NCBI GenBank assembly: GCA_038063735.1
Contig: JBBTUN010000009.1
Location: forward strand, 12,491 to 76,490
DNA: 64,000 nucleotides
Direction: 5' to 3'
From: Patescibacteria group bacterium
Lineage (GTDB): Bacteria > Patescibacteriota > Microgenomatia > Curtissbacterales > GWA2-41-24
A model generated the notes under the pieces. It had not been told where the DNA came from, searched no databases, and saw only the letters and a list, made by a program, of their open reading frames with translations. The translations under genes were made by a program, and so were the position numbers. This document shows, in pieces, positions 4,971-60,458 of the stretch. The first letter of the stretch is position 1, and the number at the start of each line of letters is the position of its first letter.

Positions 4971-7916
4971 TTACTGCGCCTTTGCAAGGCTAAATGGACA
5001 GATTGAATTGTAGGCGCAGTATATGCAAGCCGGCTCGCGTCCGAAGTACTTGGGGCTGGCAATAAAATGATTGGTTTTGGTGTCTCTTTTAATGTTTTGG
5101 GCAGTTTCTACTATTAATTTTTCGACTTTTTGCAAATCTTTTTCTGTGGGCCGGTAGGCACCAATAATGCCTGTTTCCAAAAAGTAGAGCGCGACTTTTT
5201 CGGGCATTATTTTGTGACGTTTAAAATAATAGAGGGCGTAAAGTGCCAGTTGAGTTGATTCTTTTGCCTGGGCGTTTGCCCTTTCCTGGTCTATGTTTTC
5301 GGATGATTTGTAATCGATAATCGTAATTTTAGAACCTGGTTTAACGTCTACTCTATCGAACCTACCTACCAAGGTTACACCTTCTACTGCGAACTTAAAT
5401 GGCGATTCAATGAGCGTTGGCACGTCTTTGGACTTTGACTCCCGAGCGAAAAATTCTTCCAGGGCAAGTTTCCCTTGTATTTTTCTCTTCTCTTCATGTT
5501 CGACTGTTAAGAATCCTTCGCTATCCCAGGCGTTTTCAAAAACTTCTAAAAGTGCCTTGAGCGTCATAACTTTACCCTGTTTTTTAATGCGGTTGAATTG
5601 GGCAACGGCGGCATGGAGTGCGGCTCCGTAAACAATTGCGTGGTGCTTCAAAATTGGCAGTCGCAGGATATGAACATAGCGGTATTTGTAAGCGCAAGTT
5701 AGATAGTCATCCATGGAACCTTGAGTGAGCTTTAAGGTGTCGACATCAAAAAGCATAGTTTGGGCGCTTATTCTGGCAACCGGGGCAAATTTTTCAATTT
5801 TCTCGAGTGGCGACAGTGGACTTGGAGACATTGTTGACTTGGATTTATCGAGAGCTTCCAAAACAAAAGGTGAAATTTTTTTGATTCGTTTGCCGCCAAC
5901 ATCCCGAGATGAGGTAAGATACAATAAATCTTTTGCACGAGTCATGCCAACGTAAAAAAGACGTCTTTCTTCTTCCAAATGCCAGTCACCACTTGGCAGG
6001 GATTCTTTAATAAGTTTTTCCGGCAGCTCGATTGCCTCCGGACGAACACGGGACGGAAAGCGGTTTGATATTAAATTGACCATAAAAACGACCGGGAATT
6101 CCAGGCCTTTTGCGCCGTGGATGGTCATGACGTTAACGGCATCTGTGTCCGGGTCGAATTCAATTGTTGTCGGATCGTCGCCAGCAGTGCGGATGCTTTC
6201 CAAATAATCTATAAATTGTGTAACGGTTTGAATATTTGCGACTTGTTCAAATTCTTTTATTTTTTCAAAAAATTTAGCAATATTTTGAATTTTAATTTGG
6301 CCTTCAACTTTGTCTTCTTTATCAAGACGAGTTAGATAGCCGGATTTTTTAAGGAAAGTGTAGAGGATACGGCCTACCTTCTCTTTTGCAGACATTTTAA
6401 TTGCCTCAGTAAGATCTTGGAGCAATTTTTCTATGATAGCGTGAGATTCTTTGGTGATATCGAGCCCTTCGGTACTGATTTTGTCTAAGTTGGTAAGGAC
6501 GTAGTAAAGAGAACGGGTTTTTCTTTTGGCAAACGATATTAATTTCAGTGTTTCTTGAGGCGGCAATTCGTAGAGGTCCGATGTTAGGAGGTTGTAAACA
6601 TTAAGACTATCTTCAAAATTAGAAATTGCCGTTAAAAATGAGATTAAAACTTTTACTTCTTCCTGCTGGTAAAGACCAGAAGAGCCCACAAATTTGTGCG
6701 GAATGCCGCGCATATTAAGGGCTCGCAAGAAATAGTCCGCTTGGGAATTGGCGCGCACAAGGATTGCGAAATCGCGGTATGAATACGGTTGACGGTTGAC
6801 GGTTGACGGTTGACGGTTTTTTCGGGATGCCAGTTTTGCAATTTCTTCGGCGACCAAGTCTGCCTCTTCGGAGATAGTATCTGCAAATAATTCTTGAGGG
6901 CTTGCGCCGGTTTTTTTTCTTGCACTTTTCAGCTTTTTATTTATTTTGTTTTTAATTTCAAGCCTATCGGGGTTGTTGTGGATAATAAGCCTGTATGAGC
7001 TGTCTAGAATTGCCTGCGTCGAGCGGTAATTTTCTACCAGTACTATCTGTTTTGCTTTGGGGAAATTTTTTACGAACTCTAATATATTAGATACGGCGGC
7101 TCCACGGAATTTATAAATAGACTGGTCGTCGTCTCCGACGACACAAATGTTTTTGTGAGCGGATGCAAGCATTGTGACAAGCTGGTTTTGAGCAAAATTT
7201 GTGTCCTGGTATTCGTCAACTAAAATGTATTTAAATTTTTGCTGATAAGTTTTCAGTATCGCCGGGCGTTTTTTGAATAGATCGATGGCTTTTACGACCT
7301 GGTCTCCAAAATCCAGGAGGTTTGCTTCATCTTTATACTTTTCGTACTGTTGGTAGGCCCGGGCAAGTTCTGTGATTTTTAGGCTTTCCGTTTTTTCTTG
7401 GTTTTTATGGCTTTTTGCAAATTTAGCAAATTCGTCCGGAGAAATGTTCTCGTCTTTTAGGCGCGAGAAAAAAGAAAGCATTGCAGAAGCGAATTTTGTG
7501 GGATTGCCCAGTGGCCGGTAATAATTGAGGTTGAAGCGGAATAGGTTTTGCTGAAAAAATAGAACCTGTTGAGGGCGGGACAAAACTTTAAAGTCTGGGC
7601 TTAGGCCAACGTCCAGGGCATTATCGCGCAGAATTCTGTCTCCAAAAGCGTGGAATGTGGAAATCCAGGTATCTATAAAACCGTATGGAACCAGGGTGTC
7701 TACGCGCTCTTCCATTTCTCCGGCGGCTTTATCGGTAAAGGTCAGAGCGAGGATTTCCGAAGGCCTGGCCAGCTTTTTTTCGATAATATAAGCGATTCTT
7801 CTGGCAATAACGGTGGTTTTACCGGTTCCGGCACCCGCAATAATTAAAAGAGGACCTTGTGTGGTGGTTACCGCCTCTTTTTGCTGTGGATTAAGTTCTT
7901 TGAGAATGTCTGACAC
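4971..7916 (-). CDS. UvrD/PcrA-family SF1 DNA helicase fused to a C-terminal RecB/Cas4-like PD-(D/E)xK nuclease with a Cys4 iron-sulfur cluster
   Basis: N-terminus LNPQQKEAV...GAGTGKTTVIARRIAYII (UvrD motif I). Motifs II (VDEYQDTN) and VI-like are present. The C-terminus has GRFDRVD, IIDYKS, QLALYAL and CIYCAYNSIC (CxxCx5C), typical of AddB/Cas4-type nucleases. GTG start at 7916. An in-frame heptanucleotide tandem repeat sits in a helicase loop (see findings). Confidence 0.8.
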   Translation of the reverse strand: MSDILKELNPQQKEAVTTTQGPLLIIAGAGTGKTTVIARRIAYIIEKKLARPSEILALTFTDKAAGEMEERVDTLVPYGFIDTWISTFHAFGDRILRDNALDVGLSPDFKVLSRPQQVLFFQQNLFRFNLNYYRPLGNPTKFASAMLSFFSRLKDENISPDEFAKFAKSHKNQEKTESLKITELARAYQQYEKYKDEANLLDFGDQVVKAIDLFKKRPAILKTYQQKFKYILVDEYQDTNFAQNQLVTMLASAHKNICVVGDDDQSIYKFRGAAVSNILEFVKNFPKAKQIVLVENYRSTQAILDSSYRLIIHNNPDRLEIKNKINKKLKSARKKTGASPQELFADTISEEADLVAEEIAKLASRKNRQPSTVNRQPYSYRDFAILVRANSQADYFLRALNMRGIPHKFVGSSGLYQQEEVKVLISFLTAISNFEDSLNVYNLLTSDLYELPPQETLKLISFAKRKTRSLYYVLTNLDKISTEGLDITKESHAIIEKLLQDLTEAIKMSAKEKVGRILYTFLKKSGYLTRLDKEDKVEGQIKIQNIAKFFEKIKEFEQVANIQTVTQFIDYLESIRTAGDDPTTIEFDPDTDAVNVMTIHGAKGLEFPVVFMVNLISNRFPSRVRPEAIELPEKLIKESLPSGDWHLEEERRLFYVGMTRAKDLLYLTSSRDVGGKRIKKISPFVLEALDKSKSTMSPSPLSPLEKIEKFAPVARISAQTMLFDVDTLKLTQGSMDDYLTCAYKYRYVHILRLPILKHHAIVYGAALHAAVAQFNRIKKQGKVMTLKALLEVFENAWDSEGFLTVEHEEKRKIQGKLALEEFFARESKSKDVPTLIESPFKFAVEGVTLVGRFDRVDVKPGSKITIIDYKSSENIDQERANAQAKESTQLALYALYYFKRHKIMPEKVALYFLETGIIGAYRPTEKDLQKVEKLIVETAQNIKRDTKTNHFIASPKYFGREPACIYCAYNSICPFSLAKAQ
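6785..6819. repeat. heptanucleotide tandem repeat (ACGGTTG x4 + partial) inside the helicase-nuclease coding region
   Basis: Seen directly: gaat ACGGTTG ACGGTTG ACGGTTG ACGGTTG ACGGTTT. It encodes NRQPSTVNRQP in the helicase frame. Confidence 0.8.
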
Positions 7917-25870: not shown

Positions 25871-25945
25871 TCTATTAATTTTAAATTTTAAGTTTTTAAT
25901 TTTAATTGAATTTTTAATGTTTAAATTTTTAAAATTTCTTTTAGT
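25871..25945. repeat. AT-rich ~70-nt dispersed intergenic repeat, copy 1
   Basis: TTAATTTTAAATTTTAAGTTTTTAATTTTAATTGAATTTTTAATGTTTAAATTTTTAAAATTT aligns at roughly 85% identity with 43971-44050. Confidence 0.6.
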
Positions 25946-26600: not shown

Positions 26601-27424
26601 TATATCTTCTTGGTGTATTGCTTGGAAATCCAGCCCAATTTGCCTTCGAAGGAAATTTTTATCCAATCTTCGGTTTCCTGGATAATTTCCAGTTTATCCC
26701 CTGTGTTTACCCTGCCAATTTCAGCCGAATCCAGCACCGGTTCTTTTCTTACTTTAAGATACCCCTGCGGAGTCTTGGCAATTTCTACTTCGGGAGTGTC
26801 GGTTTTAACGCTTTCGGTCGACGTGGGGTTTTTTGCCAACTCGGATGCCAATGTTACGCTGGCCACAAGCTTATATTTAGATGAGGTTTTTATGGCAAAT
26901 TCCCGATCTATAAAACCCTGGCCTTTGCTGATTCCTACTTTATGATCACCATTTTCTAAATCTGTAATAATTAGGGGTGTTTTACCTTTATATTTACCGT
27001 CTATGGTTATTTCTGCATCAGTTGGATTGGACGCAATAAATACGTCATTTTTACCCTTCTCCAGCCACAGAATTTCCCCACTTTGAGCCATTAAATTGTT
27101 ATTGAGTTCGCGATTTACGACAGTTAAGGTGCTTGGGTAAAGATCGATTTTACTTATATAGGAAGCTTCGGAAGCCGTAACTTTAAGGGTGTATGATCCA
27201 CTTTTGAGCTGGTCGGAGAAAAATGGGGTTTTCCCTAAGTGTTTCCCGTCCAGAAAAACCGAAGCTTCGGGGGTGGAAGTTACCTGCAGTGCGGCCGGCT
27301 TGGCAGTGCCAATGAGCGAGCAGCCACTTAATGAGGTTGCAAGTAGTAGGTAGAGGGTGGTAGGTAGCAGGTATTTTTTTACGACTAACGATGAACGATT
27401 AACAATGAACGTGATACTAGGCAT
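26600..27424 (-). CDS. lipoprotein with tandem PEGA domains and a C-terminal bacterial SH3 (SH3b) domain
   Basis: The track start is a TTG. The in-frame ATG begins MPSITF..., and the signal peptide ends in the lipobox LSGC. PEGA-like repeats are present (YTLKVTASEASY, HKVGISKGQGFIDREF). The C-terminal SH3b reads GYLKVRKEPVLDSAEIGRVNTGDKLEIIQETEDWIKI. Confidence 0.55.
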   Translation of the reverse strand: MPSITFIVNRSSLVVKKYLLPTTLYLLLATSLSGCSLIGTAKPAALQVTSTPEASVFLDGKHLGKTPFFSDQLKSGSYTLKVTASEASYISKIDLYPSTLTVVNRELNNNLMAQSGEILWLEKGKNDVFIASNPTDAEITIDGKYKGKTPLIITDLENGDHKVGISKGQGFIDREFAIKTSSKYKLVASVTLASELAKNPTSTESVKTDTPEVEIAKTPQGYLKVRKEPVLDSAEIGRVNTGDKLEIIQETEDWIKISFEGKLGWISKQYTKKI

Positions 27425-32050: not shown

Positions 32051-32086
32051 AAATTAGTTGATTGTTGATAGTTGATGGTTCATAGC

Positions 32087-35481: not shown

Positions 35482-35820
35482 TCAGCCTTGAGGAGGTTTT
35501 TTGGATTTAGGAATTGGAAGAGTTGCTGTTATCTCCGTCTGTGATCTTGCGCTGCGATCTTTTCTCTCAAATGCTTGATCCTCTTCTCCTTCGTGCCATA
35601 GTTCCTGCCGCAAAACAGTTATCTCACCTGGTGCGGAAATACCAATTTTAACTCGATCTCGCTCTACACCTAAAACACGTACAAGAATGTTTCCAGATAT
35701 CACTATGCCTTGATCTACTTTTCTTGTTAGGATAAGCATACCGTCTTCATCCTCGTGAAGTTTCTTTGCGGCATCCACAACTTTCGCCGGAATTGATTTC
35801 AATCCTTCTTTCACATTCAT
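35482..35820 (-). CDS. csrA: carbon storage regulator CsrA (RNA-binding global regulator)
   Basis: MLILTRKVDQGIVISGNILVRVLGVERDRVKIGISAPGEITVLRQELW closely matches the CsrA core. The ORF as drawn has a 27-aa N-terminal extension. The internal ATG at 35739 is preceded by GAGGA and may be the true start. Confidence 0.7.
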   Translation of the reverse strand: MNVKEGLKSIPAKVVDAAKKLHEDEDGMLILTRKVDQGIVISGNILVRVLGVERDRVKIGISAPGEITVLRQELWHEGEEDQAFERKDRSARSQTEITATLPIPKSKKPPQG

Positions 35821-35840: not shown

Positions 35841-36728
35841 CTATAGGATACTATTGTCAATACGGACGTATACTTTGAATTTTTTTCTGTAGACATCCAG
35901 TACTTTTTTTTGGATATTCTTTGGATGGAAGAAAAGTTGAGTGTTCCCTATTTGCTCTATGGTTATTTTAGAACGCATGTAGTTTAGTTGGAAACTTTTT
36001 AGTAAGTTTTCGATAAGAGACAAGCAATAAGAGACAAGCAATATGTTTACGTGTGCTTTTTGCTTTTTGCTTTTTGCTTTTTGCTTTTCTGCCTTCCAAT
36101 TTGGCAGGTATTTATGGATCCAGTTGTTTGCCTTGACGAATTTTGCGTATGTGTTGTTTTTATCGTAGATTGGCTTTAATTGCGCTATTTCGTGGGCTGT
36201 GTACAGGTTTTCCTCACTGATTTTTAGATTTGCCTCATCTATAAAAATGTTGAGACAGGCTCTATTGTTTTGAAATTTTGAGCGCGGTGATCTTTTATAC
36301 GGAAGCAGAACAAGGTTTGCAAAGAATCTCGTCGTCCAGATTGTATTTTTAGCGGTGATAATTAGAAGGTCTATGTCATCGCTGGCTGTGCTGTTATTCA
36401 TGGACAAAGCGCCGGTTATGGCAACAAGATTGATTGTCGGGATCACTCTGAGTAGCTTTGAAAAGAATATTGCTTTAGCATATTTTTTCTTCGAGTATTT
36501 GTTTCTGGTTATTCTTTTTTTCACCAGGCCGTACCTTTTTTGCAGGAAAAAGTAGTTTTTTGTCTCCCCTATTTTATGTTCGGCTATGAGTATAGTGAGG
36601 GTTTTTGCTACTTGAGTTTTTGTCGCTTTATTTTCTACAAGGTAATTTTGTACTTCACCTGGAGTGAGAGGATAGTCAAAAATGTCACCATAGACAAGCG
36701 TTGCAAGAGTTGCCTGCTTTAAATTCAT
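35841..36728 (-). CDS. Pol-beta-superfamily nucleotidyltransferase-domain protein, function unknown
   Basis: GALSMNNSTASDDIDLLII matches the NTase G[SG]-x(9-13)-D-x-[DE] motif, and there is a further acidic residue downstream (FIDEAN). 295 aa. Contains an 8-bp x4.5 tandem repeat and a 14-bp tandem duplication in the C-terminal coding region. Confidence 0.4.
   Translation of the reverse strand: MNLKQATLATLVYGDIFDYPLTPGEVQNYLVENKATKTQVAKTLTILIAEHKIGETKNYFFLQKRYGLVKKRITRNKYSKKKYAKAIFFSKLLRVIPTINLVAITGALSMNNSTASDDIDLLIITAKNTIWTTRFFANLVLLPYKRSPRSKFQNNRACLNIFIDEANLKISEENLYTAHEIAQLKPIYDKNNTYAKFVKANNWIHKYLPNWKAEKQKAKSKKQKAHVNILLVSYCLSLIENLLKSFQLNYMRSKITIEQIGNTQLFFHPKNIQKKVLDVYRKKFKVYVRIDNSIL
36054..36088. 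repeat. octanucleotide tandem repeat (TGCTTTTT x4.5) inside the nucleotidyltransferase-domain gene
   Basis: Seen directly. It encodes KQKAKSKKQKAKS on the minus strand and lies adjacent to a perfect 14-bp tandem duplication ATAAGAGACAAGCA x2 (36013-36040). Confidence 0.8.
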
Positions 36729-36764: not shown

Positions 36765-38081
36765 TTACTTTGCCGGAGTAGTTTGATATTTTGCAAAAAC
36801 TTTGGCGATATTAGCGGCTGTAGTCTTTAGGGCTTCCGTTGCGGGGGTTCCCGCTATTGCACTGTTTATTGCGTCTTCGTAGGCCTTAATTATTTGATCG
36901 TTTAAGCCGTTATCGAATGTTCGGGACGCCATTGGGAATGATTGCATATATGGTGCATCTGTCATATAGGCACCGACATACGGGTCCGACGCCAGTTTGG
37001 CTGCAAGCGTAATTTTGGGATATGCCTCGCCAAAAATTCTGCCCGGCGTCTTTTGAGCTTCGGTGTAGAGTTTGACCATAGTTGAATCCTCCTGAAGATA
37101 TTTGACGAACTTCCATGCTTCTTCCTGGCTTGTTGATTTAGAAGATACGCCAAGCGCCCAATAGCTACCCCAGGTGATTTTGTTATTGTCTAGTTGCGGG
37201 ACAGGCGCGATTTTAAAGTTTAACGTAGGATTTGACGCTTTTATTTCTGCTGCTCTCCAACTTGGTGCAAAATACATTGCCAGATTGCCGCCGGTAAACG
37301 CAATCGTAGAGGCCGGTTGAGCCTCATCCCAAACGCGGTTTTCGCTTTTTGTAAATTTTGTGTAGTATTCCAGGGAGTCTGCCGATCTTTGATCTGTAGG
37401 ATTTTTGATATCGCCCCCATTTTGCAATATCATAAGCCCAAGGATGTCTGAGAAATGGTCTACATTCGATGCTGTACCTAGGGCAACACCACCGGTTCTA
37501 ATATTACCATCCGGCCCTTTGACGGTAAGTTTTGCAGCATCCTGGGAAAGCTCCTGCCAAGTGGCCGGTGGCTGCGATATGCCTGCTGCCTTAAAGATAT
37601 CTTCGTTCCAATAAAGGCCTAAGCCATCTATGCCGGTTGGCACACCAACAAATTTTTTACCGGAATTTCTAAGATCTGTAAAAACAACGGGGAAGTAATC
37701 TTTTTTAATATCGGCGGATGTAATTATTTTGGCTGGAATTTCTGACATTTCATTTTGCAGCATTGGCGTCCAGGTATTATGAAACACAAAGACGTCCGGT
37801 CCTTTGCCGGAATTTATTTGTTCTTGCAGGGACTCGCGATATTGCTGGCGGTTTCTCTTTTCGTAAACAATGTTTACATTAGGGTGGTCTTTTTTGTAAT
37901 CCGTAATAACTTGATTTACAACAGATGCAGATTCCCAAAGGCCCCAAAACTTTAATGTAACTTCTTTATTGCCTGCTCCCTGTGGCAGGAGTTTACAGGC
38001 ACTTAAGACAAACGAAGCTACCAATACTAGCAGTAGTTTGGGCAAAAAGTTCATCACTTGAGTATGGTGATTTATACGCAC
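36765..38081 (-). CDS. carbohydrate ABC-transporter substrate-binding lipoprotein (family 1 SBP), orphan
   Basis: 438 aa with a lipoprotein signal (LSAC). The overall pattern resembles extracellular solute-binding protein family 1. No permease or ATPase genes nearby. Confidence 0.6.
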   Translation of the reverse strand: MRINHHTQVMNFLPKLLLVLVASFVLSACKLLPQGAGNKEVTLKFWGLWESASVVNQVITDYKKDHPNVNIVYEKRNRQQYRESLQEQINSGKGPDVFVFHNTWTPMLQNEMSEIPAKIITSADIKKDYFPVVFTDLRNSGKKFVGVPTGIDGLGLYWNEDIFKAAGISQPPATWQELSQDAAKLTVKGPDGNIRTGGVALGTASNVDHFSDILGLMILQNGGDIKNPTDQRSADSLEYYTKFTKSENRVWDEAQPASTIAFTGGNLAMYFAPSWRAAEIKASNPTLNFKIAPVPQLDNNKITWGSYWALGVSSKSTSQEEAWKFVKYLQEDSTMVKLYTEAQKTPGRIFGEAYPKITLAAKLASDPYVGAYMTDAPYMQSFPMASRTFDNGLNDQIIKAYEDAINSAIAGTPATEALKTTAANIAKVFAKYQTTPAK

Positions 38082-41684: not shown

Positions 41685-43970
41685 ATGAGACAAAAAGACA
41701 TAGAGACAAAGACACAAATTAAAAATAGTTTTAAAGAGGAAAAAGAAATATACGCTTTTTGGGAAAAGGAAAAGTTTTTTTCATTCGACTCAAAAACTTC
41801 AAAAAATATTTATTCTCTTTTAATGCCCCCGCCCAACTTAACCGGTGAATTGCATTTGGGTCACGCCCTTCAGCACTGCATCATGGATGCTATTGCTAGA
41901 TATAAACGCCTCTCTGGTTTTGAGGTTTTACTTCTTCCTGGCGTGGACCATGCCGGCATCCAATTTGAAGGAACGCTAGACAAAAAACTTTCCAAAGAGG
42001 GCAAGACGAAGAAAAGTTTGGGCAGAGAAAAATGGTTAGAAGAAGCATGGAAATTTAAAGATGAAGTTTATAAATCTTTTCATGATACCTGGACATTATT
42101 TGGTATTTCTGCAGACTGGTCTCGTGAAGTTTTTACTTTGGATAATGGACCAAAAAAAGCTGTTTTTGAAGAATTTAAAACTTTTTGGGATAAAGGATTA
42201 ATTTATAAAGGGCCATACATTGTGCAGTGGTGTCCTAAGTGCAACACGGCAATTGAAGATGTGGAAATGGAATACCTGGAAAAACGCGAGACACTTTACT
42301 TCTTAAAATATGGCCCTTTGACATTGGCAACGGCAAGGCCCGAAACAAAGTTTGGAGACACTGCTATGGCGGTTAATCCCACGGACAAAAGGTATAAGGA
42401 CTTTATCGGAAAAGAATTTGAAATAGAAACACTAAACGGCAAAAAGATGATGATTGTTGTAGGGGATGATGCCGTTGATCCAAAATTTGGAACAGGAGTT
42501 ATCAAAGTAACCCCAGGGCATGATTTTACCGATTATGAAATTGGCAAGCGTCATAATTTGCCAATTATTCAGGTAATTAGTAAGGAGGGAAGACTCACGG
42601 AATTGGCCGGGAAATATGCCGGTATGAAAGTCTTGGAAGCAAGGGCAGTGATGATTCCCGATTTAAAAGCGAAAGGGATCTTAGTAAAGGAGGAGGAATA
42701 TATTCATAACGTCTCCGTTTGTGAAAGATGCAAAAGCGTCGTTGAGCCGTTAATTTCCGAGGAATGGTTTGTAAAAATGAAAGATATTGCAAAAGGCGGA
42801 ATTGCTGCGATTAACAAAGATCAGATAAAGTTCTTACCAAAAAATTATAAAGGGATTATTTTGGATTGGCTTGAGGAATTGCATGACTGGTGTATTTCCA
42901 GATCTCTTTGGTGGGGACATAGGATTCCTGTTTGGTATAAGAGAAGTGATAAGAGACAAGCGATAAGCAAAGCTTTTCTACGAATAAGTGATAAGCCAGA
43001 AAGGTCTGAAATGAGAGTTTCACTTGAGTCGCCCGGAAAAGGCTGGGTGCAGGATGAGCAGGTTTTGGATACTTGGTTTTCGTCGGGGTTGTGGCCATTA
43101 AGCACTCTGGGCTGGCCGAAGGTTACGGGTCCTGTCAGTGATTTCCCTCCCGTTAGTGCTCGTTCGAGTGAACAATCAAAAGGTAATCTAAAAGAAACTG
43201 TCGAACTGCGCGCTGACAGGAGCCTTTCCACCACTGCCACCCGTTCCCGGGATGGACTTTATGAGTCGGCCTTTCCGTGGGATTTTGAAATTAGCGCACC
43301 GGAAATTAAATACCTGTGGATTGCCAGGATGATTATGCTTTCAGTTTATTTCACCGACGAAATTCCTTTTAAAACGATGTTTTTCCACGGCATGTTAAGG
43401 GACTTGGAAGGGCGTAAATTTTCTAAATCTTTAGGAAATGGTATCGAACCGCAGTACTTGGTTGATAAGTGGGGCGTCGATGCCTCCCGGATGGCTTTAT
43501 ACACTTATTCGATTCCGGGAAGGGACGGCCGTGTTAACAAGGCAGTTCTGGATGAAAGGGGCAAAAACTTCAGGAATTTTGGAACTAAAATTAGAAACAT
43601 TGCACGGTTTGTGCTGGAGCTTAAGCGACAAGAGACAAGCAACAAGAGACAAGAGAAAAATGAATACAGTGATCAATGGATAGTGGAGGAATTGGATAAG
43701 ACTATAAAAAAAGTTACCAAGAATTTGGATAATTTAGAACTTCATTTGGCAGTGGAGGAATTGTACGAGTTTGTGTGGCATAAGTTTGCCGACAAATATA
43801 TTGAATCAGCAAAGGAAAGAAGAGGAGATGCGCAGCCAACTTTGGAAAATGTCCTGAAGCAGGTTTTGATTCTTCTGCATCCTTTCATGCCGTTTTTGAC
43901 TGAGGAAGTTTATCAGATGTTTGATGTAAAAAAGAAATCGATAATGTTGGAAGAATGGCCTTCTGTCTAA
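41685..43970 (+). CDS. valS: valyl-tRNA synthetase (shortened, 761 aa) with an unusual low-complexity insertion
   Basis: PPPNLTGELHLGHAL (HIGH), ATARPETKFGDTAMAVNPTDKRY and GHDFTDYEIGKRHNLP (ValRS signatures), WCISRSLWWGHRIP, DTWFSSGLWPLSTLGWP, and KFSKSLGN (KMSKS). There is a ~40-aa Ser/Arg-rich insert between LGWP and the WIARMIM motif. Confidence 0.85.
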   Translation: MRQKDIETKTQIKNSFKEEKEIYAFWEKEKFFSFDSKTSKNIYSLLMPPPNLTGELHLGHALQHCIMDAIARYKRLSGFEVLLLPGVDHAGIQFEGTLDKKLSKEGKTKKSLGREKWLEEAWKFKDEVYKSFHDTWTLFGISADWSREVFTLDNGPKKAVFEEFKTFWDKGLIYKGPYIVQWCPKCNTAIEDVEMEYLEKRETLYFLKYGPLTLATARPETKFGDTAMAVNPTDKRYKDFIGKEFEIETLNGKKMMIVVGDDAVDPKFGTGVIKVTPGHDFTDYEIGKRHNLPIIQVISKEGRLTELAGKYAGMKVLEARAVMIPDLKAKGILVKEEEYIHNVSVCERCKSVVEPLISEEWFVKMKDIAKGGIAAINKDQIKFLPKNYKGIILDWLEELHDWCISRSLWWGHRIPVWYKRSDKRQAISKAFLRISDKPERSEMRVSLESPGKGWVQDEQVLDTWFSSGLWPLSTLGWPKVTGPVSDFPPVSARSSEQSKGNLKETVELRADRSLSTTATRSRDGLYESAFPWDFEISAPEIKYLWIARMIMLSVYFTDEIPFKTMFFHGMLRDLEGRKFSKSLGNGIEPQYLVDKWGVDASRMALYTYSIPGRDGRVNKAVLDERGKNFRNFGTKIRNIARFVLELKRQETSNKRQEKNEYSDQWIVEELDKTIKKVTKNLDNLELHLAVEELYEFVWHKFADKYIESAKERRGDAQPTLENVLKQVLILLHPFMPFLTEEVYQMFDVKKKSIMLEEWPSV

Positions 43971-58967: not shown

Positions 58968-60110
58968 ATGAAATTTTCAATAAATCAACAAGTATTTTTA
59001 AAGTCTTTAAGTGTTGTCAATAGATCTCTTTTGTCCAAAAGCAACTTACCAATACTTGCCAATGTTTTAATAAGTGCCAAAGGCGGCAAGATAGAGTTTG
59101 TAACAACAAGCCTGGAGACTGCAACCAGGGTAGAAATAGCAGGGAAGGTGACAGAGGAAGGAAGAACAACCCTGCCTAGCAGGGCGGTGAACGAATTTGT
59201 TTCACAACTTAATGAAGTAGAACTATCTTTTGAAAAGCTTGGGGAAGAAGTTCTTATTTCTGCACCGGGGTTTAAGGCAAGGTTTGCGACAATGGCAGCT
59301 GAAGAGTTCCCGGCAATTCCAAAAGTTGACAGCGGGAAACAGGTGGAAGTTGTGGGCCAGGACTTTGTTGAGGGGATAAACAAGGTAGTATTTTGTGCCG
59401 CAGTTGATGAGAGCCGGCCGATTTTAACCGGCGTGCTTGTTGAGACAAATAAGAAGGGTTTTTCTATGGTTGCAACCGATGGGTTCCGCTTGGGTTTTTG
59501 CCAGGTTAAGGTGGAGGGGCAGCAGGAGCCGGGCGGCCTCAAATTTATAATACCCGCAAAGGCGCTTAGTGAAATAGCCAAGATAATATCAGAATCAAAT
59601 GAAGAAAAAGGGGTAGGGGTAAAGGTTAAAATGATGGTGTCTGATAACTTGAGCCAGGTAGTTTTTAAGATAAATAATGTAGAGTTTACATCCCGACTTA
59701 TTGAAGGAGTTTTTCCAAACTGGGAGAAGCTGATCCCAAGCACATTTAGTTCAAAGGCAAAACTTAATAGGGGTGAATTCTTAAGACTTATTAAAATTGC
59801 CTCAATTTTTTCCCGGGACTCCGGCAATATAGTCAAATTGAGCCTTGAGAATGGTGGGAAGACCTCGAAGCTCTCGGTTAATTCTACAACAGCGCAGGTT
59901 GGGTCAAGTGAATCGGAAATACCAATTGCTATGGATGGGAAAGGCGGGGAGATTGCTTTTAATTATCGTTATCTAATAGAGGCACTAACTACCATCGGAG
60001 AAGAGGATGTGAATTTTGAAATGAATGAGAGTTTAAATCCGGGTAAAATAACAGGAACTACTGATGACAATTTTTTCCATATAATCATGCCTGTTCGATT
60101 GCAGAATTGA
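58968..60110 (+). CDS. dnaN: DNA polymerase III beta sliding clamp
   Basis: MKFSINQQVFLKSLSVVNRSL... in a three-domain, 380-aa protein immediately downstream of dnaA. Confidence 0.9.
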   Translation: MKFSINQQVFLKSLSVVNRSLLSKSNLPILANVLISAKGGKIEFVTTSLETATRVEIAGKVTEEGRTTLPSRAVNEFVSQLNEVELSFEKLGEEVLISAPGFKARFATMAAEEFPAIPKVDSGKQVEVVGQDFVEGINKVVFCAAVDESRPILTGVLVETNKKGFSMVATDGFRLGFCQVKVEGQQEPGGLKFIIPAKALSEIAKIISESNEEKGVGVKVKMMVSDNLSQVVFKINNVEFTSRLIEGVFPNWEKLIPSTFSSKAKLNRGEFLRLIKIASIFSRDSGNIVKLSLENGGKTSKLSVNSTTAQVGSSESEIPIAMDGKGGEIAFNYRYLIEALTTIGEEDVNFEMNESLNPGKITGTTDDNFFHIIMPVRLQN

Positions 60111-60148
60111 CCTTTGGCATTTGACAATTGACCTTTGGCATTTGACAA
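60107..60148 (+). repeat. perfect 21-bp tandem direct repeat (TTGACCTTTGGCATTTGACAA x2) spanning the dnaN stop and the start of the downstream gene
   Basis: Seen directly. Copy 1 is 60107-60127 and copy 2 is 60128-60148. Each copy holds two TTGAC half-sites. Confidence 0.7.
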
Positions 60149-60458
60149 TCTCTTTGTGTTTAAACCGGTTGGATCTTTGATTAACAAAATACCCCAAAGG
60201 GCGAAGGTTGGCGACGCTTTGGTTGCTATTAGGGTGAGACAAGCTGCAAAGGATGCATTGGACGGTTTTCTTAAAAATTACCCGCCAGAGGTTAGAAGTG
60301 GTGTAAAAATAAAAACATACAAAAATGGGGTTTTGACCATTAATGCTACACCTTCGGTCTCCGCGGAACTGCATATGAGCGCCAATAGGTTAATTGAGGA
60401 GGTAAACTATATCTTAAAGACAAAGGCTGTCAAGGCTCTGAGGTTTAAGGCATTTTAG
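60135..60458 (+). CDS. DUF721-domain protein (DciA-like, possible helicase-loader/replication-associated factor)
   Basis: 107 aa. The pattern VGDALVAIRVRQAAKDALDGFL...VKIKTYKNGVLTINATPSVSAELHMSANRLIEEVNYIL fits DUF721 proteins commonly encoded next to dnaN. The start is TTG (60135) or GTG (60156), and no ATG is available. Confidence 0.4.
   Translation: MAFDNLFVFKPVGSLINKIPQRAKVGDALVAIRVRQAAKDALDGFLKNYPPEVRSGVKIKTYKNGVLTINATPSVSAELHMSANRLIEEVNYILKTKAVKALRFKAF

Follow-up and report, generated by a model that had tools for sequence, protein, structure and literature searches.

Heptanucleotide simple sequence repeats (SSRs) are over-represented in bacteria, and it has been hypothesised that they originate by polymerase slippage (PMC4692102, PMC4679880). 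The known class comprises the short tandemly repeated repetitive (STRR) sequences of cyanobacteria, the GGGAATC repeats of Xanthomonas and the TAACTGA repeats of Beggiatoaceae (PMC4692102, PMC4679880). In H. canadensis, C-terminal sequences are switched by SSR phase variation (PMC2823697). Here, we describe a gene with two heptanucleotide-based arrays in a 64,000-nucleotide stretch of contig JBBTUN010000009.1 from a Patescibacteria group bacterium, which we call the window. The gene (35841..36728, minus strand) encodes a 295-aa nucleotidyltransferase (NTase)-like protein, and the arrays are located in the linker between its catalytic core and a conserved C-terminal module. We consider it probable (roughly 0.6) that the locus is an ON/OFF site of the phase-variation type, which operates by heptamer slippage in the linker and is ON in the window. 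The candidate phyla radiation (CPR, or Patescibacteria) consists of uncultured, ultra-small and probably host-dependent bacteria. To our knowledge, essentially nothing has been established on how their phenotypes vary, and a literature search found no report of heptanucleotide arrays or of phase variation in these organisms.

The open reading frame (ORF) is real, as the listing of ORFs of the window confirms. It carries GALSMNNSTASDDIDLLII, and its product matches NCBI entry MEK7581445.1 (P0166) exactly. The 5' array (36054..36088, minus strand) consists, in gene sense, of AAAAGCA in five copies and encodes the peptide KQKAKSKKQKA. Tandem Repeats Finder (TRF) assigns it a period of 7, 5.0 copies and 100% matches, and reads it on the plus strand as TGCTTTT x5.0. 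The 3' array (36013..36043, minus strand) is also perfect. In gene sense it reads (TTGCTTG+TCTCTTA)x2.2 and encodes LLVSYCLSLI; the TRF unit is ATAAGAGACAAGCA, present 2.2 times, a 14-mer made of two heptamers. The initial annotation was right about two tandem repeats with units that are not multiples of three, but its 8-bp unit in 4.5 copies was a miscount of the 7-nt unit in five copies. Together, the arrays take up parts of the linker and the first turns of the C-terminal helix, the start of which is encoded by the 3' array. The 100% matches imply that both were homogenised recently.

As 7 is not a multiple of 3, any change by one unit shifts the reading frame. In simulation, a single-unit change in either array always led to a product of 224-255 aa without the C-terminal module, with the last ~56-80 codons out of frame, in line with what had been predicted from the unit lengths. 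The frame was restored by combinations of changes, for example to 6+3 or 3+3 units. By TRF and simulation, the gene thus combines perfect intragenic repeats, units not divisible by three and a change of frame with unit number, which are among the features expected of a phase-variable locus. The module downstream of the arrays is conserved in the present frame, and the window gene is therefore ON.

Natural alleles that differ in unit number are found in an ortholog of the gene. In the ortholog cluster of the L012 type (90% identity, 22 members), 20 proteins are 293 aa long, while P0132 has 241 aa and P0123 has 248 aa. The point at which the two short proteins diverge from the others is within the 3' array. 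The corresponding loci L012, L089 and L090 were taken from separate assemblies and share 99.6-99.9% identity across 5.7 kb. The sole indels among them are 7, 14 or 21 nt of (CTTTCCA)n, with three copies in L089, four in L012 and six in L090. Four units specify the 293-aa protein (ON), and the alleles with three and six units are truncated at 241 and 248 aa (OFF). In both OFF alleles, an intact C-terminal module is retained in the shifted frame. Assembly error is an unlikely cause, because both reads and assembly k-mers are much longer than the arrays. The alleles of this species are slippage-type ON/OFF variation in natural populations, and the number of repeats is thus not invariant across relatives.

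Other variation at the 3' end of the gene is of a different kind. Protein P0147 was considered as a product of heptamer slippage, but in fact results from a 103-nt-for-45-nt replacement. It is an aberrant 274-aa protein, and the swap (L091 1548-1650 versus L009 3695-3739) affects the linker and the C-terminal helix of the ortholog in otherwise identical contigs. The cause may be insertion, recombination or a chimeric assembly. Two Hainich groundwater contigs (L001 and L002), which are 99.85% identical to the window and gap-free over 2 kb, diverge from it abruptly at 35872, so that the last ~8 residues change (KFKVLNS* versus KFKVYVRIDNSIL*). The tail of L001 past this point has no match anywhere in the window. 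Taken together, the abrupt divergence and the unmatched tail indicate a strain-level breakpoint between the NTase gene and csrA. The extreme C-terminus also varies between strains in other orthologs (P0140, P0157, P0172).

The position of the arrays is shared by many relatives of the gene. We compared the linker DNA in orthologs from 80 GTDB species. In the alignments, a conserved block ends with YLPNW and is followed by a linker that varies in sequence and in length (31-71 aa), and then by the conserved module. In the window gene, the linker extends from LPNW to QLxYM (35991..36107, minus strand), and the module (35844..36011, minus strand) contains the invariant alignment columns E240, Q247, M251 and E258 together with QLFFHP at residues 264-269. 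Arrays of period 7 or 14 were scored in the linkers of 10 of the 25 LPNW-type (Curtissbacteria-type) orthologs, four of which have two. Within the DNA of the same loci, this corresponds to 2.6 arrays per kb in the linker versus 0.18 in non-coding and 0.057 in coding DNA, a 14-fold and a 45-fold excess, respectively. Across the family, the linker is a hot spot for such arrays.

Many Curtissbacteria-type genes have a common layout, in which a short A-rich spacer separates a 5' from a 3' heptamer array, and the units differ from species to species. Linkers with heptamer arrays are present in L004, L012, L014, L015, L018, L023, L025, L029 and L046, and their units differ. The linker of L029 reads (GTTCACA)4...(CCGTCAA)4, that of L012 (AAAGTCA)5...(CTTTCCA)4 and that of L015 (GTATCAA)4...(CTTATCA/CTTCTCA)4. 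L014 has (ATTCTCA)5, and L025 and L046 have (ATTCACC)4. In L004, (GCAACAA)4 is followed by 2.5 copies of TTGCTTGTCTCTTA, which is the window's own unit. L004 and the window have an identical double unit of 28 nt, or 33 identical nt with the flanks, and encode proteins that are 55% identical.

The joint that carries the arrays is also a place where the protein can be divided. In nine species (L036, L041, L045, L049, L050, L051, L059, L073 and L087), the homolog is split ~630-660 nt into the gene. The first ORF ends in ...LPNWKP* or a close variant, and the module goes on in the -1 frame, with no linker between them. The conserved motifs on either side overlap at the junction (CCAAACTGGAAGCCNTAG). 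A conserved ATG in the second frame is formed from the codon of the invariant W203, and AAGGAG is found upstream of it in two loci. Programmed -1 frameshifting was considered for this clade. It is disfavoured by the conserved in-frame ATG and the AAGGAG in two loci, and inspection of the junction sequences by eye revealed no canonical slippery site. Overlapping ORFs with separate initiation are therefore more likely than programmed frameshifting. With either mechanism, core and module are separable exactly at the position of the window's arrays.

Switching could be under selection, as it is in contingency loci, or could simply be tolerated as mutational noise. A selected locus would keep the paired arrays as a frameshift switch with two dials that toggles the fusion of core and module. 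The purpose might be, for instance, variation of a surface-linked or host-interaction trait that is encoded together with the neighbouring solute-binding protein. The linker's 14-fold excess over non-coding DNA, with 14 arrays observed and ~1 expected, agrees with this idea. So do the recurrence of unrelated units at the same joint in many species, the presence of OFF alleles at consensus in two independent populations with slips in opposite directions, the module encoded as a separate -1-frame ORF in another clade, and the conserved pairing with the gene for an extracellular solute-binding protein (54/64). However, intact arrays are found in only 10/25 orthologs, and many are degenerate. The arrays are short (2-5 units), and identical types are present in essential genes. 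Moreover, the apparent enrichment is inflated, because the species are related by phylogeny and do not represent independent samples. We thus regard selection for switching as a tentative possibility.

Phase variation by slippage, whether selected or not, is the best mechanistic reading of the data; it has been demonstrated in the ortholog and is unproven for the lineage of the window. In this reading, a conserved CPR protein combines a winged helix, a Pol-beta-fold NTase core and a C-terminal module of ~55 residues. In Curtissbacteria-type genomes, short heptanucleotide arrays that resemble the cyanobacterial STRR sequences have colonised its disordered and poorly constrained linker. Usually two arrays are present, partly complementary to each other, with units that differ between species and are homogenised within each species. 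The pair in the lineage of the window is (AAAAGCA)5 and (TTGCTTG-TCTCTTA)2. Slipped-strand mispairing in replication would add or remove a unit, shift the frame and lead to a protein of 224-255 aa without the module, and a second slip in either array could bring the frame back. We infer that slippage on the 5-unit and 2-unit arrays of the window lineage occurs at a meaningful rate, and that the enzyme is inactive once the module is lost.

The repeats are not special to the NTase gene. Among the 90 tandem arrays identified in 586 kb of related DNA, 60 have a period of 7, 14, 21 or 35, and outside the NTase gene the period is a multiple of 7 for 33 of 53 arrays, which are mostly located in long open frames. 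In the window, the gene for valyl-tRNA synthetase (ValRS; 41685..43970, plus strand) contains the heptamer-pair array AAGCGACAAGAGACAAGCAACAAGAGACAAGAG in a variable loop (43623..43656, plus strand), in-frame and with the peptide KRQETSNKRQEK. Its best match to the NTase array extends over 24 nt at 43630-43653, with one mismatch (95.8%, E 6e-6). A second, single copy of 20 nt is found in another stretch of the same gene (42948-42967), also in a variable loop, where it encodes DKRQAISK. Altogether, AGAGACAAG is present in six copies in the window, all of them on the plus strand. The gene for a UvrD/PcrA-like helicase (4971..7916, minus strand) has a perfect (ACGGTTG)x4.9 array (6785..6818, minus strand), which is in-frame and encodes NRQPSTVNRQP. 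The same heptamer and peptide (CCGTCAA family) form the NTase linker of another Curtissbacteria species (L029).

A metagenome scan located the double unit at 12 loci. The arrays are in-frame in genes for ValRS and isoleucyl-tRNA synthetase (IleRS), in a gene for a ribosomal protein judged by eye, on the basis of the flanking peptide, to be L18-like, and in further ORFs. They were also found 5' of a gene for an EF-G-like GTPase and as longer intergenic arrays, of which the one in L101 has ~6 double units. Heptamer-pair arrays of AAGAGAC/AAGCAAC are present in the metagenome loci L094, L096/L099, L098 and L101-L103. The repeats thus resemble the STRR class in consisting of tandem 7-nt units at many loci, with unit families common to related genomes, and belong to a genome-wide and lineage-wide class of heptanucleotide arrays. 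As they are also present in essential genes (ValRS, IleRS, L18-like), their presence alone is no proof of a selected switch.

Further arrays with periods that are multiples of 7 are located in the window at 60105-60149, 27381-27411, 32055-32085 and 25875-25932. They comprise a perfect 21-nt repeat (x2.1), two 14-nt repeats (x2.2), one of them inside a 286-aa ORF, and an AT-rich 7-nt repeat (x8.6).

Curtissbacteria and related Microgenomates might use the paired, partly complementary arrays at the domain joint as a heritable frameshift switch. On a wider scale, these bacteria with reduced genomes might carry a so far undescribed, genome-wide system of STRR-like heptamer arrays, in-frame in variable loops of housekeeping proteins, which would be the first SSR 'phasome' described in the CPR. 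In such a switch, the core may be coupled to or uncoupled from the module, and the sister clade may have fixed the arrangement as two overlapping -1-frame ORFs. We offer this as a speculation, and hold it with limited confidence.

The paired arrays are partly complementary, which raises the question of whether they act through nucleic acid structure. The mean complementarity of the two arms of a locus to each other is 0.69, compared to 0.51 +/- 0.086 when they are paired with arms from other loci. Sliding-window folding and dinucleotide shuffles were applied to 45 orthologs. In 12 of them, the linker was more structured than any other 90-nt window of the gene, and the mean z-score of folding was -0.96, with many positive values. 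For the window, the fold of the linker was not significant (z -1.35 to -1.86), and the stem was absent from the centroid structure. The signal of a structured linker is real but modest. It could suggest that the arrays pair as the two arms of a conserved stem-loop, in RNA or DNA, within the coding region, which might serve as a translational pause, an RNase site, a csrA/pyrG attenuator or a stimulator of programmed frameshifting. The arm complementarity and the strong palindromes of some orthologs would fit this role. However, the stem has no conserved position, a canonical slippery X XXY YYZ site is absent, and the split clade is without the linker altogether. Given also the weak folding of the window sequence, a functional hairpin seems very improbable. 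We read the complementarity of the arms as a trace of the origin of the arrays, by template switching or quasi-palindrome formation, and not as proof of a functional RNA structure.

The palindromes take the place of the heptamer arrays in L006, L013, L034, L047, L058, L074 and L086. Their z-scores are -2.9 to -3.1 in L006, -4.2 in L013, -4.7 in L047, -4.2 in L058 and -4.9 in L086. In three orthologs, linker palindromes of 24-50 nt recur in-frame at a second variable site of their own gene (L034, 3619-3753 and 3879-3922; L047, 3565-3699 and 3812-3861; L032, 709-732 and 1227-1343). The peptide RSDLNRNSRL, for example, occurs twice. By analogy, these segments resemble selfish in-frame palindromic elements.

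Such elements provide another possible explanation for the arrays. Ogata et al. reportedly described, in 2000, Rickettsia palindromic elements inserted in-frame in protein genes, and a related selfish element might have spread to tolerant loops of many genes here. The palindromes that recur within L034, L047 and L032 could be taken in this sense, as could the dispersal of the 14-mer, which is found at the two ValRS sites, in the L004 ortholog, in IleRS, L18-like and other ORFs of the metagenomes and in intergenic DNA. Nevertheless, an extended consensus with defined ends is missing, and the common part is a unit of 7 or 14 nt and not a repeat of ~100 nt. Within the window DNA, the shared matches are only 20-24 nt long. 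All window copies are on the plus strand, and neither a transposase nor a target duplication is evident. Spread of a selfish element is thus an improbable account of the arrays.

Several observations weigh against phase variation of the window gene. Arrays of 5 and 2 units are short by comparison with classical phase-variable tracts, and switching rates may therefore be low. The arrays in ValRS, IleRS and the L18-like gene are located where switching cannot be adaptive, so that a mutational bias specific to the lineage may have generated the arrays as a by-product. OFF alleles were detected in 1 of the 20 ortholog clusters inspected, where they account for 2 of 22 members, and were absent elsewhere; a set of ten small ortholog clusters yielded no additional ones. 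An exact look-up among 15 billion proteins did not retrieve any of the ten predicted slip variants of the window protein. Finally, no length variant was seen in the window's own lineage, and no repeat-number polymorphism like the 3/4/6 units of the ortholog. The initial annotation, which had proposed phase variation by slippage, is thus borne out for an ortholog but not by a variant in the lineage of the window. As this lineage is represented by just ~four contigs, the test is a weak one with low power.

The arrays might also be inert low-complexity filler, that is, fossil slippage products in an unconstrained linker, effectively stable at their present length and of no consequence in the window lineage. 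All contigs of the lineage indeed have equal copy numbers, the disordered linker varies from 31 to 71 aa in length, and heptamer arrays are common genome-wide. On the other hand, perfect arrays imply recent homogenisation, and the 4-unit array of the ortholog has alleles with -1 and +2 units in near-identical genomes. On balance, we think it rather unlikely that the arrays are fossils, and prefer ON/OFF variation by slippage.

The protein affected by the arrays belongs to a conserved but unclassified family with a winged helix-turn-helix and an NTase domain. More than 550 full-length homologs of ~290 aa are known, essentially all from Curtissbacteria and other Microgenomates of the CPR, and the UniRef name for them is 'Polymerase nucleotidyl transferase domain-containing protein'. 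In the window protein, the N-terminal winged-helix domain comprises residues ~1-62 (36543..36728, minus strand), and the NTase core residues ~95-190 (36159..36446, minus strand), with G106-A-L-S...D118-I-D120 and a third carboxylate, D164. The core matches the motif hG[GS]x9-13Dh[DE]h, with A107 in place of S. In 113 homologs, there is no variation at D117, D118 or D120, and conservation is at least 90% for G106 and D164.

Sequence searches did not classify the protein. Pfam and NCBIfam gave no match at E<=1 for the window protein, and its homologs peak at 20 bits for the Pfam NTP_transf_2 / Polbeta families, below the gathering cut-off of 26.9 bits. Neither the protein itself nor a profile built from the 113 homologs matched any PDB sequence. 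The classification therefore rests on structure. The AlphaFold2 model of the window protein has a predicted local distance difference test score (pLDDT) of 88.6 and a predicted template modelling score (pTM) of 0.86, with residues 220-228, within the linker, disordered. Its core is structurally similar to solved NTases. The best matches are minimal nucleotidyltransferases of the MntA type and aminoglycoside adenylyltransferases of the ANT type, at an identity of just 10-20%. The model thus predicts that the window protein is, at the fold level, a nucleotidyltransferase of the Pol-beta superfamily. The Pol-beta assignment of the initial annotation therefore holds for the fold and the G...DxD motif, with MntA and ANT as the nearest structures, but not for membership in a Pfam or NCBIfam family.

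Some homologs (L057, L062, L071, L076, L078, L082-L084) come from metagenome-assembled genomes labelled Chloroflexi (Anaerolineae, Thermoflexales), plus one labelled Acidobacteriota. They have the winged-helix and NTase part in common with the window protein (residues 1-210), and their C-terminal region is different (WEMRRKxRKF...HVKGHF).

The genes around the NTase gene have a conserved order, LeuS/IleS - TsaD - DUF192 - VanW - SBP_bac_1 - NTase gene - (csrA) - pyrG - GroES/EL. The gene for the extracellular solute-binding protein SBP_bac_1 (36765..38081, minus strand; Pfam E 4.5e-33) ends 37 nt upstream of the NTase gene. It is located upstream on the same strand in 54/64 related loci across Microgenomates, and is the conserved gene partner of the family, forming a two-gene unit with it. 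Permease genes adjoining SBP_bac_1 were not seen in the loci viewed.

Directly downstream of the NTase gene, csrA is encoded by a 112-aa ORF (35482..35820, minus strand; Pfam CsrA E 2.2e-18, residues 28-77). Because the domain begins only with residue 28 (MLILTRK...), translation is likely to start at M28, at 35739. Past the domain, the product has a C-terminal extension of ~35 aa. The adjacency to csrA, to which the initial annotation had attached importance, is incidental, because csrA is downstream in only 4/59 related loci. The next gene after csrA in the window is pyrG, for CTP synthase, which is downstream in 22/59 loci and in 18/20 loci of the LPNW type. In six homologs (L032, L034 from the Beckwithbacteria genome CP011210, L047, L086, L051 and L087), a cytidylyltransferase-like domain (Pfam CTP_transf_like, E ~1e-11) is fused after the module. 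Together with the pyrG neighbour, these fusions are a hint that the protein may have a role in nucleotide-activated, possibly CTP-dependent, metabolism.

Two other functions had been suggested at the outset, and neither has gained support. For a defence NTase of the CD-NTase type, PADLOC returned 0 families, CdnE ranked only 43rd in Foldseek with a probability of 0.6, and the neighbours are SBP_bac_1, csrA and pyrG. For a minimal NTase (MNT) of toxin-antitoxin type, as in the antitoxin of HEPN-MNT pairs, the protein is unsuitable with 295 aa and extra domains, compared to the usual ~100-140 aa, and there is no adjacent HEPN gene. Both are unsupported because of the empty PADLOC result, the missing HEPN or effector partner and the conserved housekeeping neighbourhood.

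Genomes rich in heptanucleotide arrays, arrays that are in-frame in protein genes and at least one conserved gene that flips between full-length and truncated alleles in natural populations together provide a concrete and testable route to population-level bet-hedging in the CPR. There is also a practical consequence for annotation, since truncated or 'split' calls in this family can be real slip alleles and not errors.

Slippage of heptanucleotide SSRs is a known mechanism. Two aspects appear undescribed, namely that paired arrays recur at a single domain joint in a conserved CPR gene, and that arrays of this kind have spread in-frame through housekeeping genes of the CPR. With respect to the protein, the window gene product resembles MntA and ANT in its Pol-beta NTase fold, with G...DxD and a third Asp. 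Unlike these enzymes, it carries a winged helix at the N-terminus as well as a unique conserved module at the C-terminus (QLxYM...QLFFHP), and is without a HEPN partner. Its gene is part of a core-genome synteny (SBP - NTase gene - pyrG), and some homologs are fused to a cytidylyltransferase-like domain.

With respect to the switch, the locus is similar to the SSR contingency loci of Haemophilus, Neisseria, Campylobacter and Helicobacter. It has a perfect intragenic non-triplet repeat, and a unit change between near-identical genomes shifts the frame and truncates or alters the C-terminus, in this case in an ortholog. In contrast to these loci, the unit is 7 nt long instead of 1-5 nt, the arrays are short (2-6 units), and there are two per gene. 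The host is a non-pathogenic CPR bacterium from groundwater, and the gene encodes a cytoplasmic-looking NTase and is not a surface or restriction-modification gene.

With respect to the repeats, there is a likeness to the Rickettsia palindromic elements, in that hairpin-capable repeated DNA is tolerated in-frame in surface loops and linkers of housekeeping proteins. However, a long consensus is absent, and the repeated entity is a heptamer or a heptamer pair. The arrays also have features in common with the heptamers of heterocystous cyanobacteria, Xanthomonas and Beggiatoaceae. In both cases, 2-6 tandem units are dispersed over the genome, unit families are shared between species, some inverted pairs are able to form stem-loops, and the length varies between close relatives. 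STRR-type repeats are overwhelmingly intergenic, whereas many of those described here are in-frame in genes, essential ones included, and recur at one orthologous joint.

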